DNA from: a virus
Taxonomy: Duplodnaviria > Heunggongvirae > Uroviricota > Caudoviricetes
Virus record (IMG/VR): IMGVR_UViG_2571042690_000022
Direction: 5' to 3' (one strand)
DNA length: 34,937 nt
Both the position numbers and the translations under genes were made by a program. This document shows, piece after piece, positions 1 to 5,009 of the stretch; the stretch's first letter is position 1, and the number at the start of each line of letters is the position of its first letter. The notes under the pieces are model-generated. The model worked only from the letters and a program-made list of their open reading frames with translations, did no database searches and was not told where the DNA came from.

Positions 1-390
1 TTACTCTTTTTTCTCCGTATCTGCATCGGGTTCATCAGCAAATAGCTTGCCCTGCATCCGATCCAGTTCTTCTTTTCTTACCCGCTTAACCACGCTGTAG
101 ACCCACTGAAGCGAAACACCAAATTTGCGGGCCAGTTCGTGGTGGTTGCGTCCGTTAAACTCCCTGAAGATTTCCCGGTCGCGCTGACTGACCTTCCATA
201 CCATGCCCATCGGGAAATAAACGTTTTGCCCGCCCCAGACCTGCATCATTCGGTTCGCGACGGCCTGACCAATCTGGTCGGCAACTTCGGGCTCAATATC
301 AATAATCTCGCGAACGGTCTCAGAGGTATGCTGTGCCAGTTCCACCAGGAGTTCCGGCCCCTTACTTCGAAACTGATTCAGGTCGCTCAT
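1..390 (-). CDS. mor: Mor-family (Mor/C) transcriptional activator of middle/late genes
   Basis: 129 aa; C-terminal region GGQNVYFPMG...FNGRNHHELARKFGVSLQWVYSVVKRVR resembles the Mor/C family HTH region as recalled from Mu Mor; last gene of the leftward early operon; stop codon at 1-3. Confidence 0.75.
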   Translation of the reverse strand: MSDLNQFRSKGPELLVELAQHTSETVREIIDIEPEVADQIGQAVANRMMQVWGGQNVYFPMGMVWKVSQRDREIFREFNGRNHHELARKFGVSLQWVYSVVKRVRKEELDRMQGKLFADEPDADTEKKE

Positions 391-811
391 GTTTGACTCC
401 CGCAGCTCTGCGCTGCCACTTCTTCAGTTTCTCAATAACACTGCTTGCCTGTTCAGTACTGAGCCAGCGCAGGGCGCTGATGCCCGTTTCCCGCTTGATC
501 CACCTCGCTAATGCATTTTCTGAACGGTCACGAACAATGCCGGCAGCAGCCATTTCAAGCCATAGCGCACGAATTTTCCTGGACTGCGGATGGTTATCAA
601 GCGGTAAACCGGAGCTGGCTTTTCTGGCTGGTTTAACGCGAAAGCCTTTCTTTTTCATGGATTCCAGCACGCAGTTTAGTTGTGTGGTATCCATTCCTTT
701 GGTTGAGGCTTTACCGGTCAGCCCCTGTAACATCTGGCGGTAGGTGTCTTCATCCATACCCAGTTCATTACGGGCAATATGGATAAGCTGTATCAGGCGT
801 TTTTTCTGCAT
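362..811 (-). CDS. gemA: GemA-like early regulatory protein (DUF1018-type, Mu gp16-like)
   Basis: 149 aa; N-terminus MQKKRLIQLIHIARNELGMDEDTYRQML typical of GemA/DUF1018; RBS AAGGAG about 7 nt upstream of ATG at 811; 29-nt overlap with mor as in Mu gemA-mor. Confidence 0.6.
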   Translation of the reverse strand: MQKKRLIQLIHIARNELGMDEDTYRQMLQGLTGKASTKGMDTTQLNCVLESMKKKGFRVKPARKASSGLPLDNHPQSRKIRALWLEMAAAGIVRDRSENALARWIKRETGISALRWLSTEQASSVIEKLKKWQRRAAGVKHERPESVSK

Positions 812-812
812 A

Positions 813-1019
813 TCATCTCCTTTTTTTCAGTCTGTCGGCAACAATGTCGGTTGCAGCTGGCAGGGTGACTGGCCAGAACAACATGACGGCGGTCATGTAC
901 AGGATGTAATGCGCGGTGTCGTAGTGCCTGCCATAGCCCAGGGAACGATGAAGTCTTGCGCTGCATGATCCTGCGTACATATACCAGAAAAGAAAACAGA
1001 CAATGGTTTCAGTAGTCAT
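813..1019 (-). CDS. small hydrophobic (membrane) protein, hypothetical
   Basis: 68-aa ORF from internal ATG at 1019 with GGAGG RBS just upstream (rc of 1023-1035); hydrophobic segments; the longer 813-1175 ORF start is unsupported. Confidence 0.4.
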   Translation of the reverse strand: MTTETIVCFLFWYMYAGSCSARLHRSLGYGRHYDTAHYILYMTAVMLFWPVTLPAATDIVADRLKKRR

Positions 1020-1239
1020 TCTGAATACCTCCCCATTCGATATGAATATTACGGGCAGCAATGACAGGGTCGTTATTCCACCATGCACCTGACATGTATT
1101 TTTCAACCTGTTCGCGTCCGGCAATAACACCAATTGTGATCCCCGGCCTGACGTTCTTAAAAAAGGCGCGGGCAAAAAGGTATCTGGCAGATATTCGGCA
1201 GGCTTTTAATTTCCGGCTTTTACCTGATAGCGTAATCAT
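1009..1239 (-). CDS. hypothetical early protein
   Basis: 76-aa ORF; start overlaps the stop of the upstream gene (coupled arrangement); no recognisable motif. Confidence 0.3.
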   Translation of the reverse strand: MITLSGKSRKLKACRISARYLFARAFFKNVRPGITIGVIAGREQVEKYMSGAWWNNDPVIAARNIHIEWGGIQNDY

Positions 1240-1919
1240 CTGGCCTCCAGTTTCTGTTGTTCCTGCCCACTGACCGGGCGGTGCAGTCTGACGTTCTGCC
1301 CTTCACGAAACCCCGCATAGCGCGAGGCGTCGCCATTGCGGCTTCTTCCCGGTTTACGCGCCCTGGTGGTTTGCGTCTGCGGGTATTTATGTTCCAGCCA
1401 CTGCTGCATCAGTTCACGCTCATCATCGGTCAGGGCAAAGGACTGTATTTCACTGATAACGGCCAGCACCCAGCCTTCGGCAAACTGGTCTCCACGGCTG
1501 GTGCGGGTGGCGGTTTTTATTCTTTTGTTCTGTGCACTGATATACTGCTGACGCGCCTTTTTCAGCTGACGGGCCAGCACTTCCCAGGTGTATGCAGCCA
1601 GTGCCGCACGTTCCCGGTTGCCGTAGAACCCCACAGACGGATGCGTGCCGGGGTGAATGATGGAGTTAACACCAAATACCTCGCGGATGATGTTCATCAG
1701 GCCCAGCATGTAGCGCGGTGGACGGAGACTGCCTGTCGGCCAGTAGTGACTGATGGTTTCATCAATATCACTCATAGCAATGTCGGAATGTGTGATGCCG
1801 TGAACATCCATCAGTTTACGGGCTCGGCGCAGTGCCAGAGCGGCCTCGTGCGGGTTGCCGGATGCGGCCAGCGCCAGCAACTTTTTCAGTTTCTCAATGT
1901 GTTTATTCTGGTCTGTCAT
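1236..1919 (-). CDS. DUF2786-like early protein
   Basis: Start chosen at ATG 1919 (MTDQNKHIEKLKKLLALAASGNPHEAALALRRARKLM, DUF2786-like N-terminus); ATGA overlap with stop of upstream gene at 1916; GGAG RBS about 10 nt upstream. Confidence 0.5.
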   Translation of the reverse strand: MTDQNKHIEKLKKLLALAASGNPHEAALALRRARKLMDVHGITHSDIAMSDIDETISHYWPTGSLRPPRYMLGLMNIIREVFGVNSIIHPGTHPSVGFYGNRERAALAAYTWEVLARQLKKARQQYISAQNKRIKTATRTSRGDQFAEGWVLAVISEIQSFALTDDERELMQQWLEHKYPQTQTTRARKPGRSRNGDASRYAGFREGQNVRLHRPVSGQEQQKLEAR

Positions 1920-2131
1920 TGTTCTGTATCTCCGGTATTTTTCTGCCGTTTCCATGCCCGGACAGCGTCGGACAGCTCTTTCAGGCTGTATGCTGCTTTA
2001 AGCTTTTCCCATAACCACTGTGTTGTTATGTGCATCAGCAGGGCAGCCAGGGCTGCCCCCGCACTGAGGCATGTCGCCAGGCCAGTAAGAATCAGTGTCC
2101 ATGCGGTGATTTCCCTGAGTATGTCAGCCAT
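1916..2131 (-). CDS. small single-pass membrane protein, hypothetical
   Basis: 71 aa with one hydrophobic helix (WTLILTGLATCLSAGAALAALLM); tightly packed in the early operon. Confidence 0.4.
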   Translation of the reverse strand: MADILREITAWTLILTGLATCLSAGAALAALLMHITTQWLWEKLKAAYSLKELSDAVRAWKRQKNTGDTEQ

Positions 2132-2145
2132 TGAATGCCTCCCGG

Positions 2146-2442
2146 TTACTCGTTCGTGTAAATCACGCCCAGTCGTGCAGCCAGACGTTCCAGTTTTTTC
2201 TGTTTGTGGAAGTCAATCAGCCGGTCCATCCCCTGAAGGCGCAGTTGCTCTGTCATGATTTCCACGTCTGCCAGCTCTGCCGCGAGGTCACTTTCGCTGC
2301 CCTGTCCGTTCAGGTTGCGGGCGGCACTGGCCGCCAGTTCAGCGGCCTCTTCTGCCAGTTTCAGGGCCTGTGCGTCCGGCCCGAAACGCTGCAGGGCCAG
2401 ACGGTAGAGGGCGGTGCGGGTGAGTTCGGTGTTTCGTGTCAT
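2146..2442 (-). CDS. MazG-like nucleoside triphosphate pyrophosphohydrolase (all-alpha NTP-PPase)
   Basis: 98 aa; KLAEEAAELAASAA followed by LAAELADVEIMTEQL matches the paired EExxE and ExxD metal-binding helices of small MazG/HisE-like proteins (from memory). Confidence 0.55.
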   Translation of the reverse strand: MTRNTELTRTALYRLALQRFGPDAQALKLAEEAAELAASAARNLNGQGSESDLAAELADVEIMTEQLRLQGMDRLIDFHKQKKLERLAARLGVIYTNE

Positions 2443-2451
2443 GCCGCGCCC

Positions 2452-2724
2452 TCAGTGCTTCCGGCTGACGGTGATGTGCAGGCCGCCTTCTGCAGTGGTT
2501 TCCATCCGGTACGGCACCTCATGCTCTGCCGTGTGGGTGAGTGTGTTCATCAGTACCTGCAGGGCAGCCTCCTTTCCGTTGGTCGCCACAATGGCCTGTG
2601 TGGCCATGCTGATTAGCGCCGTCAGGACGTGCTTCACATCGGTGAGGTCGCGGCATTCACACTCGTTGACATAGTGTTCAACAAGGGTTCGGGTGCGCTG
2701 TCGTGCTTCCTGTGGGGTAATCAT
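2452..2724 (-). CDS. hypothetical early protein
   Basis: 90-aa ORF in operon context; no recognisable motif. Confidence 0.4.
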   Translation of the reverse strand: MITPQEARQRTRTLVEHYVNECECRDLTDVKHVLTALISMATQAIVATNGKEAALQVLMNTLTHTAEHEVPYRMETTAEGGLHITVSRKH

Positions 2725-2915
2725 TGCGAGTCCTCCCTGTCAGGGCGGGAGAATTCCATGACGGGCACGTCTGCCGAAAAATGCTGGCTGCAGTACGGGC
2801 AGACCAGGGTGACGCGTACCGCAGGGATGTGGTATTTACCGGACATCACGGCGATGGCGCTGTGAAAACGCAGGGCTGTTATATCCCTCTCGCACTGAAT
2901 ACATTTAAATATCAT
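2721..2915 (-). CDS. small zinc-ribbon protein (CxxC-N30-CxxC)
   Basis: 64 aa with CIQCERD and CPYCSQH pairs; first gene after the gam-downstream intergenic gap. Confidence 0.4.
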   Translation of the reverse strand: MIFKCIQCERDITALRFHSAIAVMSGKYHIPAVRVTLVCPYCSQHFSADVPVMEFSRPDREDSQ

Positions 2916-3012
2916 GATTTAATTCTCCTCTGTTTCCGGCGTGCAGAAGCCCGCGGCGCTGACGTCGGAATAAAAAAGAAAATGTTTTTATTAAATAATT
3001 AACGTGGTGTGT

Positions 3013-3543
3013 TTACTGCACATCCTGCTCAAAAGGAATTATTGAAAAATCCTCAATGTCGCTTTTAATGGAAATACCGGGAATATTTTTCACGGCCTCT
3101 TTTTCATTCAGGATAGCGTCTTTATTTATTTCCTCTTTTACACGAATAAAGCGCTCAAGCCCCAGACGTCTCAGTAATTCAATAACATTATCCGCCCCAC
3201 GGATACTGACTGATGGCGGACGGTTTCGCCACTGCACCTCGCCGGTGGTGAGGTTAGCGAACTTCACCTTCCCGTTGCCGGTCAGTTCATCACGGTGTGC
3301 CTCACACCATGTCTGAATACCGGACTGCAGTTCGGCCATGCGTTTTTTCAGGCTCTCGGTGAGCGGGGCATAACGTGCGGTGATATCGCCAATGGCGTCA
3401 TTCATTTCTGTTTCAGCCCTGACCAGTTCACGTTGTGCGTCACCGAGTAGTCTGATTCCCTCAATGACCTCTTCACGTGTCCCCGGCACCCAGAGTGCTG
3501 CTGCGGCCTTGATACGTTTTGCACCTTTTGTACTTTTTGCCAT
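3013..3543 (-). CDS. gam: Gam host-nuclease inhibitor (Mu Gam-like)
   Basis: 176 aa; stretches such as WRNRPPSVSIRGADNVIELLRRLGLERFIRVKEEINKDAIL and IEDFSIIPFEQ closely resemble Mu Gam as recalled. Confidence 0.85.
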   Translation of the reverse strand: MAKSTKGAKRIKAAAALWVPGTREEVIEGIRLLGDAQRELVRAETEMNDAIGDITARYAPLTESLKKRMAELQSGIQTWCEAHRDELTGNGKVKFANLTTGEVQWRNRPPSVSIRGADNVIELLRRLGLERFIRVKEEINKDAILNEKEAVKNIPGISIKSDIEDFSIIPFEQDVQ

Positions 3544-3570: not shown

Positions 3571-3840
3571 TTACCACAAAGATTCCGGCCACACGACGCG
3601 ACAGCCGTGCAGTTCGAAAACGCCCTGACGGAAATATCCCCTGTGGTCATGTCCGGTATACAGATAACAGGCCTTTCCCTGCTCAAGCATGCGCATGCAA
3701 TGCGCACTCCGGGAAACGCGGATGACAGGTTTGTTACCCCTGATGGTGATGCTTTGTACATCCGTGTTCGTCGCCTTAAGCGCCATAATGGCTGACTGCA
3801 CTTTGCTGATTTGCTGGTTGATACCTGTGGTGGATTTCAT
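3571..3840 (-). CDS. hypothetical early protein between B and gam
   Basis: 89-aa ORF starting 2 nt after the B stop, with AAGGGG RBS inside the B 3' end; the overlapping 3402-3761 ORF is rejected. Confidence 0.5.
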   Translation of the reverse strand: MKSTTGINQQISKVQSAIMALKATNTDVQSITIRGNKPVIRVSRSAHCMRMLEQGKACYLYTGHDHRGYFRQGVFELHGCRVVWPESLW

Positions 3841-3842
3841 TA

Positions 3843-5009
3843 TTAAACCCCTTTGACAACGTCAGCGTTGACCTGTGGAACCCCGATTTCAGCGGCCAGA
3901 TTCATGGCGGCTATTACCAGGTTACTGACGGCCAGCGGATACAGCAGGCTGACCATATTTTTACGGTGACTTCCCGGATTGCTCAGGCGGGCACGTATGG
4001 CATCCACTGCACCGGCGTCCATAATGTCCGTCAGCTGTTTACCGGCCCGTTGCAGTTTGAACGTCAGAAATTCTTCAAGGTTATTGTCCAGAGGCAGAAG
4101 TTCGACCACCTCACAGCGCTGAACGACTTCACGGACTTCCATATTGCGTTCAGACAGTTTTGTCGCCAGTTCCGGCTGGCCAATCAGCACGATGGACAGC
4201 AGTTTTTTGAAACCGGACTCCAGCTCAAAAAAGCGTTTGAGGTGTTTCAGTGTCGGAATGGGCAGACTGTGGGCCTCCTCAATCACCAGAACGTGGCTGA
4301 ACCCCGCCTGGCTGCTGTCTTTCAGGACGCGATGCAACTGGCGAAAACGGGCGTCCTGACTGCGTCTGATGCTTTCCAGTGGTGCGATGGTACTGATAAT
4401 GGCTTCGGCAATAGCTGCTGCCTTCAGGGTTTTCCCTTTCACATCGTTGTCTTCCATAGCGATGATGTATGGCTCGATAACAATTACCGGCGCATTCTCG
4501 CGGTTGATACGTTCAGTCAGGTCGCGGCGCAGCGTGGATTTACCCGCACCGGACTCACCGATGACGGCCATAAACCCACCATGACGGGCTGTCTGGTACA
4601 GCGCCTCACGCACGTAGCGAATGTCCGGGGTGGTGAACACATCATCAGAACCCTGCATGGCTTCGTCGGCGAACGGGTCACGGAAAAGACCAAACGCTTT
4701 TTTGGTTGCTGGAAATAACACCTGTTTTTTGAGTAACATATTCTCTTCCTCACTGAGGCTCGTTTTATCTGTGGTACCCGCTGTACGGGGCGTGGCCGCG
4801 CCCTGTACAGCATCAAAACTCTTCGTTGTATCAATCCCCTGACTTTCCAGCCAGGACGCAAGACGCCGGCGCACTTCTCCGGGGCTGGTGCGGGGCCACG
4901 CGTTATGATTCACAATCTGGGCCAGCGTGGCCTCAGAAACATCGACAGCTCTCGCCACCACCGCCTGTGGAATACGGGCCTCTTTCAGTTGCTGCTTCAG
5001 TACCAGCAT
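3843..5009 (-). CDS. transposition ATPase (Mu B-like/TniB-like AAA+ protein)
   Basis: Walker A GESGAGKST, Walker B-like HVLVIEEAH, N-terminal HTH-like segment; start set to ATG 5009 (MLVLKQQ) with GAGGAGGG RBS; directly downstream of the transposase. Confidence 0.8.
   Translation of the reverse strand: MLVLKQQLKEARIPQAVVARAVDVSEATLAQIVNHNAWPRTSPGEVRRRLASWLESQGIDTTKSFDAVQGAATPRTAGTTDKTSLSEEENMLLKKQVLFPATKKAFGLFRDPFADEAMQGSDDVFTTPDIRYVREALYQTARHGGFMAVIGESGAGKSTLRRDLTERINRENAPVIVIEPYIIAMEDNDVKGKTLKAAAIAEAIISTIAPLESIRRSQDARFRQLHRVLKDSSQAGFSHVLVIEEAHSLPIPTLKHLKRFFELESGFKKLLSIVLIGQPELATKLSERNMEVREVVQRCEVVELLPLDNNLEEFLTFKLQRAGKQLTDIMDAGAVDAIRARLSNPGSHRKNMVSLLYPLAVSNLVIAAMNLAAEIGVPQVNADVVKGV

Follow-up and report, generated by a model that had tools for sequence, protein, structure and literature searches.

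In phage Mu, the position between gam and gemA belongs to the semi-essential early (SEE) region, the home of host-modulating functions (kil, gam, gem). The equivalent position was analysed here in a virus of the Caudoviricetes (IMG/VR virus record IMGVR_UViG_2571042690_000022); the whole stretch of DNA, 34,937 nucleotides (nt) long, is referred to below as the window. Positions 813-2915 of the window carry seven real genes on the minus strand between gam and gemA. On balance, this interval is probably the BcepMu-type counterpart of the Mu SEE region, with a backbone trio for the early programme of the phage, and a set of exchangeable cassettes, one of which encodes a predicted MazG-like enzyme.

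The likeness to Mu is one of position and neighbours. The Mu SEE region runs from kil to gemA and mor, with gp11-gp15 between gam and gemA; the interval studied here has the same early-operon position, is accompanied by homologous Gam, GemA and Mor proteins, and is likewise made up of tightly spaced small genes, most of them without a known function. The shared proteins are, however, Gam, GemA and Mor only. No Mu orthologue of the seven proteins (gp11-gp15, Kil, gp6-gp9) was found by phmmer --max with a 16-protein database, which returned nothing better than an expectation value (E) of 0.01 and at most 6 bits. The early arm also differs in being inverted relative to the late genes, on the minus strand, as in BcepMu- and B3-type phages. 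Host DNA begins right after mor, at the Mor end of the early arm, and because it directly adjoins mor the arm is inverted relative to Mu.

Other described early regions offer a second comparison. The P22 'ea' region, the lambda nin region and the plasticity regions of Pseudomonas Mu-like phages (PMC4378225) resemble the interval in their short, packed, dispensable genes that turn over between close relatives, and a P22-like phage has two of the proteins discussed below in common with this lineage (orf76 and a DUF550/PF04447 enzyme). The interval differs from these accessory regions in that only about half of its genes are accessory, the others being lineage backbone.

The interval is part of a very common prophage that is already sequenced and annotated. 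Escherichia phage PhiKM (Bcepmuvirus) is 100% identical to the first 5.1 kilobases (kb) of the window. The 2.1-kb interval is present in 629 of 5426 complete E. coli genomes, nearly always in the chromosome and in at most three copies per genome, and the carriers include sequence type (ST) 131 strains, for example JJ1886. The insertion sites differ (beside ycaL-cmk, within the aga operon, beside ybaV, and beside a truncated fimbrial usher gene), which fits a transposable phage. Roughly every ninth complete E. coli genome thus carries the prophage, and in many clinical isolates its early genes will be expressed upon induction.

Gene content and coding status

The early genes are read from the minus strand in the order transposase, B/ExeA-like ATPase, 89-amino-acid (aa) gene, gam, the seven genes, gemA and mor. 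The open reading frames (ORFs) and their matches are as follows (values are E-values).

3843-5009, minus strand: B/ExeA-like ATPase, early operon member
3571-3840, minus strand: 89-aa gene, directly after B, at the position of Mu kil
3013-3543, minus strand: gam (Mu Gam/Ku-like DNA-end binding protein), upstream boundary; Pfam Phage_Mu_Gam 9.9e-41, phmmer against Mu Gam 4.5e-66
2916-3012, minus strand: AT-rich gap of 97 nt between gam and the zinc-ribbon gene
2721-2915, minus strand: ORF for the Cys4 zinc ribbon, 64 aa, first gene after gam; phrog_3401 1.6e-40
2452-2724, minus strand: orf90, an ORF of 90 aa; phrog_3691 4.2e-56
2146-2442, minus strand: ORF for the MazG-like protein, 98 aa; phrog_2245 5.5e-34
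1916-2131, minus strand: tm71, an ORF of 71 aa; phrog_3958 1.1e-41
1236-1919, minus strand: DUF2786-DUF7168 protein, 227 aa; both domains in Pfam, phrog_421 2e-77
1009-1239, minus strand: orf76, an ORF of 76 aa; phrog_3681 6.5e-55
813-1019, minus strand: tm68, an ORF of 68 aa that abuts or overlaps gemA; phrog_6436 1.2e-44
362-811, minus strand: gemA (gp16 family), downstream boundary; Pfam GemA 8.3e-41, phmmer against Mu GemA 4.1e-24
1-390, minus strand: mor, after gemA; phmmer against Mu Mor 3.4e-13

The original prediction of small, tightly coupled genes between gam and gemA is borne out by these coordinates, by the gene overlaps and by the Pfam matches of the flanking genes. The junctions in the run comprise three ATGA overlaps and one 11-nt overlap, with other gaps of 1-14 nt, and a Shine-Dalgarno-like motif precedes most of the seven starts. 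All seven genes are called in RefSeq by the Prokaryotic Genome Annotation Pipeline (PGAP), and each has its own PHROG family match (1e-34 to 1e-77). Transcription presumably runs leftward through a single early operon that comprises the seven genes as well as A and B (the transposase genes), gam, gemA and mor; translation of the seven would be coupled, as the overlaps and Shine-Dalgarno motifs suggest.

The gap at 2916-3012 (TTAATTATTTAATAAAAACATTTTCTTTTTTATT...) is the sole sizeable non-coding stretch in the run and has a GAGGAG Shine-Dalgarno motif at its end. Neither the run nor this gap gave a match to a consensus promoter or terminator or to Rfam. The gap may serve as an internal promoter or as a site for a nucleoid protein.

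All seven genes evolve as proteins under purifying selection. The comparison set comprised 84 related loci from E. coli prophages, Klebsiella phage KP12 and 80 IMG/VR contigs (individual loci are given below by L numbers), and the ratio of nonsynonymous to synonymous polymorphism (pN/pS) was calculated as pooled pairwise Nei-Gojobori values over the distinct alleles. The ratios were 0.14 for the MazG-like gene, 0.16 for the DUF2786 gene, 0.20 for the zinc ribbon, 0.28 for orf76, 0.29 for tm68, 0.46 for orf90 and 0.49 for tm71, with 0.14 for gemA and 0.04 for gam as comparison genes; the allele pairs are phylogenetically non-independent and number 21 for tm71, which counts against the argument built on them, so that the ratios show coding constraint and nothing finer. 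In a six-frame control, the annotated frame gave the lowest ratio for each of the seven ORFs. The conservation at the protein level that the original prediction had asked about is thus present, at a pN/pS of 0.14-0.49.

It is extremely improbable that some of these ORFs are not genes, whether as chance frames or because the true gene lies on the other strand. The GenBank record of PhiKM does annotate a plus-strand hypothetical ORF at 2781-3002 and omits the minus-strand zinc-ribbon gene, and the pN/pS of orf90 and tm71 is relatively high (0.46-0.49). Against this stand the result of the six-frame control for all seven minus-strand frames, the invariant or nearly invariant cysteines of the zinc ribbon, and the PHROG families of all seven proteins. 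The plus-strand ORF itself gave a pN/pS of 2.39 and 0.91 in the informative comparisons, which were those with divergent relatives. Because of these values it is almost certainly not a gene, and its entry in the PhiKM record is very likely a misannotation.

Backbone genes and exchangeable cassettes

A presence/absence matrix (tblastn) and gene maps of the 84 loci divided the run into two groups. The zinc ribbon (76 loci), the DUF2786-DUF7168 gene (74 loci) and tm68 (79 loci) are near-universal lineage backbone and not variable cargo. The MazG-like gene (70 loci), orf90 (51 loci), orf76 (51 loci) and tm71 (29 loci) are exchangeable cassettes that have been gained, lost and swapped among related prophages. 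Comparison across relatives, suggested earlier as a check on a host-interaction role, therefore gave a divided answer, with turnover of four genes and near-universal retention of three. The division indicates where functions are to be sought: core early functions in the trio, and host-adaptive functions in the MazG-like gene, orf90, tm71 and orf76. The trio would serve the early programme of the phage through DNA handling in transposition or replication together with Gam and GemA, possibly including a membrane-linked step. This role is suggested by conservation, by synteny, and by the location of DUF2786 genes within replication modules of lytic phages.

The zinc-ribbon gene always comes first after gam, or after the gene that replaces gam, and in the minimal locus L085 it is the sole ORF of at least 50 aa between B and gemA. 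The protein has the layout CxxC-x30-CPxC (C5, C8, C39, C42). None of the four cysteines varies in eight diverse sequences, and in a set of 29 each is invariant or at least 90% conserved, with homologues down to approximately 21% identity. An AlphaFold2 (AF2) model, with a predicted local distance difference test score (pLDDT) of 89.7, shows two zinc knuckles and a three-stranded sheet. The Cys4 zinc ribbon recognised in the original prediction is thus upheld by both cysteine conservation and modelled fold: two CxxC knuckles with conserved cysteines on a beta-ribbon. Pfam gave no match above the cut-off for this protein, and the NCBIfam and PADLOC scans gave none; one homologue carries a precomputed Pfam PF13717 zinc-ribbon domain. 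The first homologue search returned mostly frameshifted or fused variants, and a profile of locus-derived sequences then found the true relatives, which were in Enterobacterales prophages only. The L085 zinc ribbon matches a Photorhabdus luminescens protein.

The nearest described folds are the ribbons of NrdR and of RpoP/RPC12. As in these, the modelled three-stranded sheet is held together by two CxxC knuckles, and the IMG label is RPC12/RpoP-like. The differences are that the match to the NrdR ribbon is not significant, and that the protein here is a stand-alone ribbon of 64 aa with an acidic tail, is not basic (isoelectric point, pI, 6.8; seven Lys and Arg against seven Asp and Glu), and is restricted to prophages of one bacterial order. 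The proposal that it is a nucleic-acid-binding regulator is not supported, depending as it does on the weak NrdR resemblance (E 0.15, template modelling (TM) score 0.48) in a protein with this pI. A reading as a YacG-like gyrase inhibitor was dropped, the cysteine spacing being unlike that of YacG and YacG being absent from the fold matches.

Fusion proteins that include the ribbon were seen in public data. In the P0016/P0004 set, one public assembly has an in-frame fusion of zinc-ribbon residues 1-26 with the C-terminal portion of Mor, which implies loss of the whole run and gemA, and a second fusion places the zinc-ribbon N-terminus in frame with the C-terminus of orf90. These proteins look like deletion derivatives of the prophage.

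The second backbone protein carries DUF2786 (PF10979; 4.8e-11, 42.9 bits against a cut-off of 23.9; residues 20-56 of the 239-aa ORF), an N-terminal helical hairpin, followed in N-to-C order by DUF7168 (PF23771; 1.1e-25, 90.4 bits against a cut-off of 25.5; residues 58-201), both above the gathering score. Its true start is placed at the ATG at 1919 and not at 1955, as both the homologue alignment and PGAP begin the protein at M12. The protein is basic (pI 10.1), and its AF2 model (pLDDT 85.5) has a low-confidence tail; the C-terminal tail holds a conserved GQEQxKL motif. A sequence search of the PDB with the protein gave nothing meaningful. In the Foldseek search of the model against the PDB, KH-domain-like fragments (probability 0.7-0.8, TM approximately 0.5 on 73-aa targets) were considered too weak for a claim of nucleic-acid binding.

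The DUF2786-DUF7168 proteins are a pan-phage fold family, of which the protein here is an ordinary member. The model had 30 BFVD matches at E ≤ 1e-3 (down to 1e-10), all of them uncharacterised phage proteins from widely differing phages, among them Sinorhizobium phiM12, Delftia PhiW-14, Bacillus SP-15 and Gordonia and Mycobacterium phages, with lytic and jumbo phages included. Homologues were present in 171 phage records. In Pseudomonas phage JD18 (B3-like) the DUF2786 gene lies two genes upstream of GemA-Mor, and in JBD24 (D3112-like) the homologue is gp17, in the early region; in JBD30, a close relative of JBD24, gp13 is Gam and gp20 is GemA (PMC12407980). In lytic Stenotrophomonas phages the gene lies within the DNA replication module. 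When viral contigs were scanned a second time with the DUF2786 alignment, the same lineage came up again, with no further context. The domains and predicted fold are shared with other phage proteins, and the GemA-Mor neighbourhood is shared with JD18; nothing distinguishes the protein here from the rest of the family. Literature searches with DUF2786, DUF7168, PF10979 and PhiKM found no functional study. The family is widespread across phage lifestyles and has no solved fold; a genetically tractable E. coli Mu-like phage would be a convenient system in which to assign its function.

The third backbone gene, tm68, is always immediately upstream of gemA, abutting or overlapping it, and its family members are 32-100% identical. 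The protein has two weaker, aromatic-rich hydrophobic stretches (Kyte-Doolittle maximum 1.52) around a conserved AELHR..GF..RY loop, and is probably a membrane protein that would form a two-span hairpin; the borderline hydropathy makes this call probable and not certain. The cassette protein tm71 has one clear hydrophobic span at approximately residues 9-33 (Kyte-Doolittle 19-residue maximum 1.98) and a charged C-terminal tail. Both of the proteins originally taken as membrane proteins are thus hydrophobic, with a clear span in tm71 and only probable spans in tm68.

All tm71 genes were in the E. coli branch, and in two collinear prophages that lack it (L003 and L004) the MazG-like gene abuts the DUF2786 gene. 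This slot between the MazG-like and DUF2786 genes is a hot spot, being empty in those two prophages or occupied by tm71, by a 127-aa ORF with a tm71-like gene (L031), or by a PF04447 enzyme (L045). The orf90 protein is soluble, and its gene starts in an ATGA overlap with the stop of the zinc-ribbon gene. Its alleles are 42-100% identical, with a mosaic N-terminal half. Scans of Pfam, NCBIfam and PADLOC gave no informative match for orf90, orf76, tm71 or tm68, and for orf90 no match at a curated threshold.

The orf76 gene is a mobile cassette common to unrelated temperate phages. It encodes a basic protein (pI 10.2), has a low GC content of 45.5%, and gave a pN/pS of 0.21 against KP12. A P22-like Salmonella phage (L092) has homologues of 66-73% identity in its early-left, 'ea'-type region, where the neighbours are TraR/DksA, DUF4222, EaA/DUF550 (two genes away) and two methylases. 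A siphovirus has a further homologue, located between erf/ssb and int. The gene is replaced in L043. An IS3-family element (L039:3424-4637; orfA with an opposite-strand DDE orfB) splits orf76 after codon 38 in a further locus.

The MazG-like protein

The 98-aa protein is predicted to be an enzyme, a divergent MazG-like nucleoside triphosphate (NTP) pyrophosphohydrolase, and its gene is the only one in the run with a concrete predicted chemistry. The original prediction had matched none of the genes to a function, which does not stand for this gene in view of its PHROG family, its conserved catalytic motif and the names given to it by two independent pipelines. It matches phrog_2245 ('nucleoside triphosphate pyrophosphohydrolase') at 5.5e-34, and phrog_4856 (1.3e-4) and phrog_1992 (0.004), the latter two MazG-like. 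PGAP names it 'nucleoside triphosphate pyrophosphohydrolase family protein', and IMG 'NTP pyrophosphatase (non-canonical NTP hydrolase)'. With an exhaustive HMMER search, 1625 related clusters were recovered, including many single-domain proteins of approximately 90-100 aa.

The acidic motif EExxE...ExxD is the metal-binding signature of the MazG, or all-alpha NTP pyrophosphohydrolase, superfamily. It is intact in the 98-aa protein as EExxE-x20-ExxD, within the superfamily spacing of 12-28. In 70 homologues of 29-68% identity, the residues concerned (E31, E32, E35, E56 and D59) are each either invariant or conserved to at least 90%; weak Pfam matches were seen among these homologues to MazG in eight and to PRA-PH in four. 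The domain size of approximately 100 aa, the motif, the MazG-like PHROG matches and the setting as a phage early gene are likenesses to the MazG superfamily, which includes small single-domain MazG-like enzymes of phages and integrons and the phage anti-defence enzyme Atd1.

Several results weigh against this assignment. The match of the 98-aa protein to Pfam PRA-PH (E 0.023, 15.5 bits) is below the cut-off of 21.3 bits, and NCBIfam gave a weak hisI match alone, with curated cut-offs not reached. Searches of PDB sequences with the single sequence, a six-sequence profile and a 70-sequence profile matched no solved structure. In an hhalign comparison of the family with E. coli MazG the motifs align, at a negligible probability of 0.8%. 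Furthermore, the motif reads EKxxE in a divergent homologue (L081) whose ExxD glutamate is missing, and because of this deviation catalysis may not be universal in the family. The protein is thus too divergent for the Pfam MazG and PRA-PH cut-offs or for recognition of solved MazG structures by sequence. As the motif is of the superfamily type and no curated model is reached, it is called MazG-like and not a confirmed superfamily member. The hhalign alignments with single E. coli MazG and PF04447 sequences, which aligned the motifs at a probability below 1%, were discounted as evidence.

If active, the protein would be a small, all-alpha, metal-dependent enzyme that converts an NTP to the nucleoside monophosphate and pyrophosphate early in the lytic cycle. 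Candidate targets in the nucleotide pool are non-canonical deoxynucleoside triphosphates (dNTPs), or nucleotide alarmones or signals, and its purpose could be house-cleaning of non-canonical dNTPs, Atd1-like removal of alarmones, or another. Relatives repeatedly carry a second nucleotide pyrophosphohydrolase in the same slot, a recurrence suggestive of selection for nucleotide-pool handling at this position.

The surroundings of the gene vary. In L045 (3616-4107), a 163-aa PF04447 (formerly DUF550) dATP/dGTP pyrophosphohydrolase (4.7e-44) lies immediately 3' of the MazG-like gene, forming a tandem pair. In L077 (3611-4123), the MazG-like protein has 170 aa, and its 70-residue C-terminal extension overlaps the start of the DUF2786 gene; this form reflects either an added domain or read-through. 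Unrelated ORFs of 56 and 67 aa fill the region in some of the loci without the MazG-like gene.

Alternative roles for the run

The run had originally been read as a set of host-interaction or anti-defence genes. Its position in a Mu-type early region agrees with that reading, while the backbone status of three genes and the lack of a defence-family match do not. In its full form, an anti-defence island in which most or all of the small proteins inhibit host immunity and are expressed first, with the MazG-like enzyme removing alarmones, signals or toxic nucleotide analogues, is unlikely. The run does consist of densely packed early genes for small proteins, some of which turn over among close relatives, but three of its seven genes belong to the conserved backbone, with a low pN/pS and deep synteny, unlike typical fast-turnover counter-defence genes. 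The near-universal trio and the synteny of DUF2786 in JD18 and JBD24 thus do not fit cargo of that kind. DUF2786-DUF7168 proteins also occur in lytic and jumbo phages of both Gram-positive and Gram-negative hosts, a breadth that argues against a host-specific target. PADLOC gave no match to a defence or anti-defence family for the seven proteins, and their PHROG matches are all labelled 'unknown function' or 'other', none being anti-restriction, anti-CRISPR or host takeover. Precedents by analogy exist for the cassettes: the left arm of Pseudomonas Mu-like phages carries small accessory ORFs, and some accessory ORFs there are anti-CRISPRs (PMC4378225); orf76 homologues lie beside DNA methylases in the P22-like phage; and Atd1, a phage MazG-like pyrophosphatase, protects against TIR-STING toxicity via (p)ppGpp depletion (bioRxiv 10.1101/2022.06.09.495361). 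For the cassettes, and above all for the MazG-like enzyme with its Atd1 precedent, a role against host defence is possible. A bolder proposal, which we regard as distinctly unlikely, is that either the MazG-like and PF04447 enzymes are counter-defence proteins that destroy nucleotide-derived immune molecules, or the trio is a core replication module with Gam and GemA. In the former case the targets would be alarmones, as for Atd1, or chain-terminating or modified NTPs from host defence enzymes; in the latter, a pan-phage DUF2786-DUF7168 fold with no solved relative would gain its first function.

It is very unlikely that the two hydrophobic proteins, perhaps with the zinc ribbon, have a role like that of Mu Kil and block septation, or disturb the envelope or gyrase, in the course of lytic growth. 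The Mu early region encodes Kil and gem functions; as given in the Mu annotation and in references cited in PMC12407980, Kil is a septation inhibitor and the gem functions are tied to supercoiling. The clear transmembrane span of tm71 and the two hydrophobic stretches of tm68 are of the kind such a role would call for, but neither Mu Kil nor any other Mu early protein has homology to the proteins of the run, the kil-equivalent position after B holds a different gene (the 89-aa gene at 3571-3840), and tm71 is dispensable in many intact-looking prophages.

The account preferred here, a BcepMu-type counterpart of the Mu SEE region with backbone and cassettes, also has results that tell against it with respect to the proposed roles of the trio. 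The best Foldseek match of the zinc ribbon in the PDB, the NrdR N-terminal ribbon, is weak (E 0.15, TMq 0.48), and the DUF2786-DUF7168 model had no Foldseek fold match in the PDB (best E 0.24, TM 0.24). With models that give no informative fold match, the roles proposed for these two proteins are based on synteny and conservation and would be those of early DNA-handling partners. The region is an ordinary semi-essential early segment, with one predicted enzyme and six proteins without known function, and current understanding is not overturned by any finding here.

Some further variation was seen towards the upstream end of the early region. In L045 (2457-3068) and in most of the Klebsiella-type loci (L045-L076), the gam position, flanked by the 89-aa gene and the zinc ribbon, is occupied by an unrelated 203-aa DUF3164 protein (Pfam 3e-80), which may be a functional alternative to or a partner of Gam; in JD18, DUF3164 directly adjoins the DUF2786 gene. 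In L085, approximately 460 nt between B and the zinc-ribbon gene (4252-4713) hold no ORF of at least 40 aa and may be a decayed remnant of the early region. The 89-aa gene at 3571-3840 on the minus strand gave no match in a Pfam scan. It encodes a basic protein (pI 9.9) with a pN/pS of 0.18 and a match to phrog_2041, and one of its alleles is named 'HI_1482 family protein' by PGAP.

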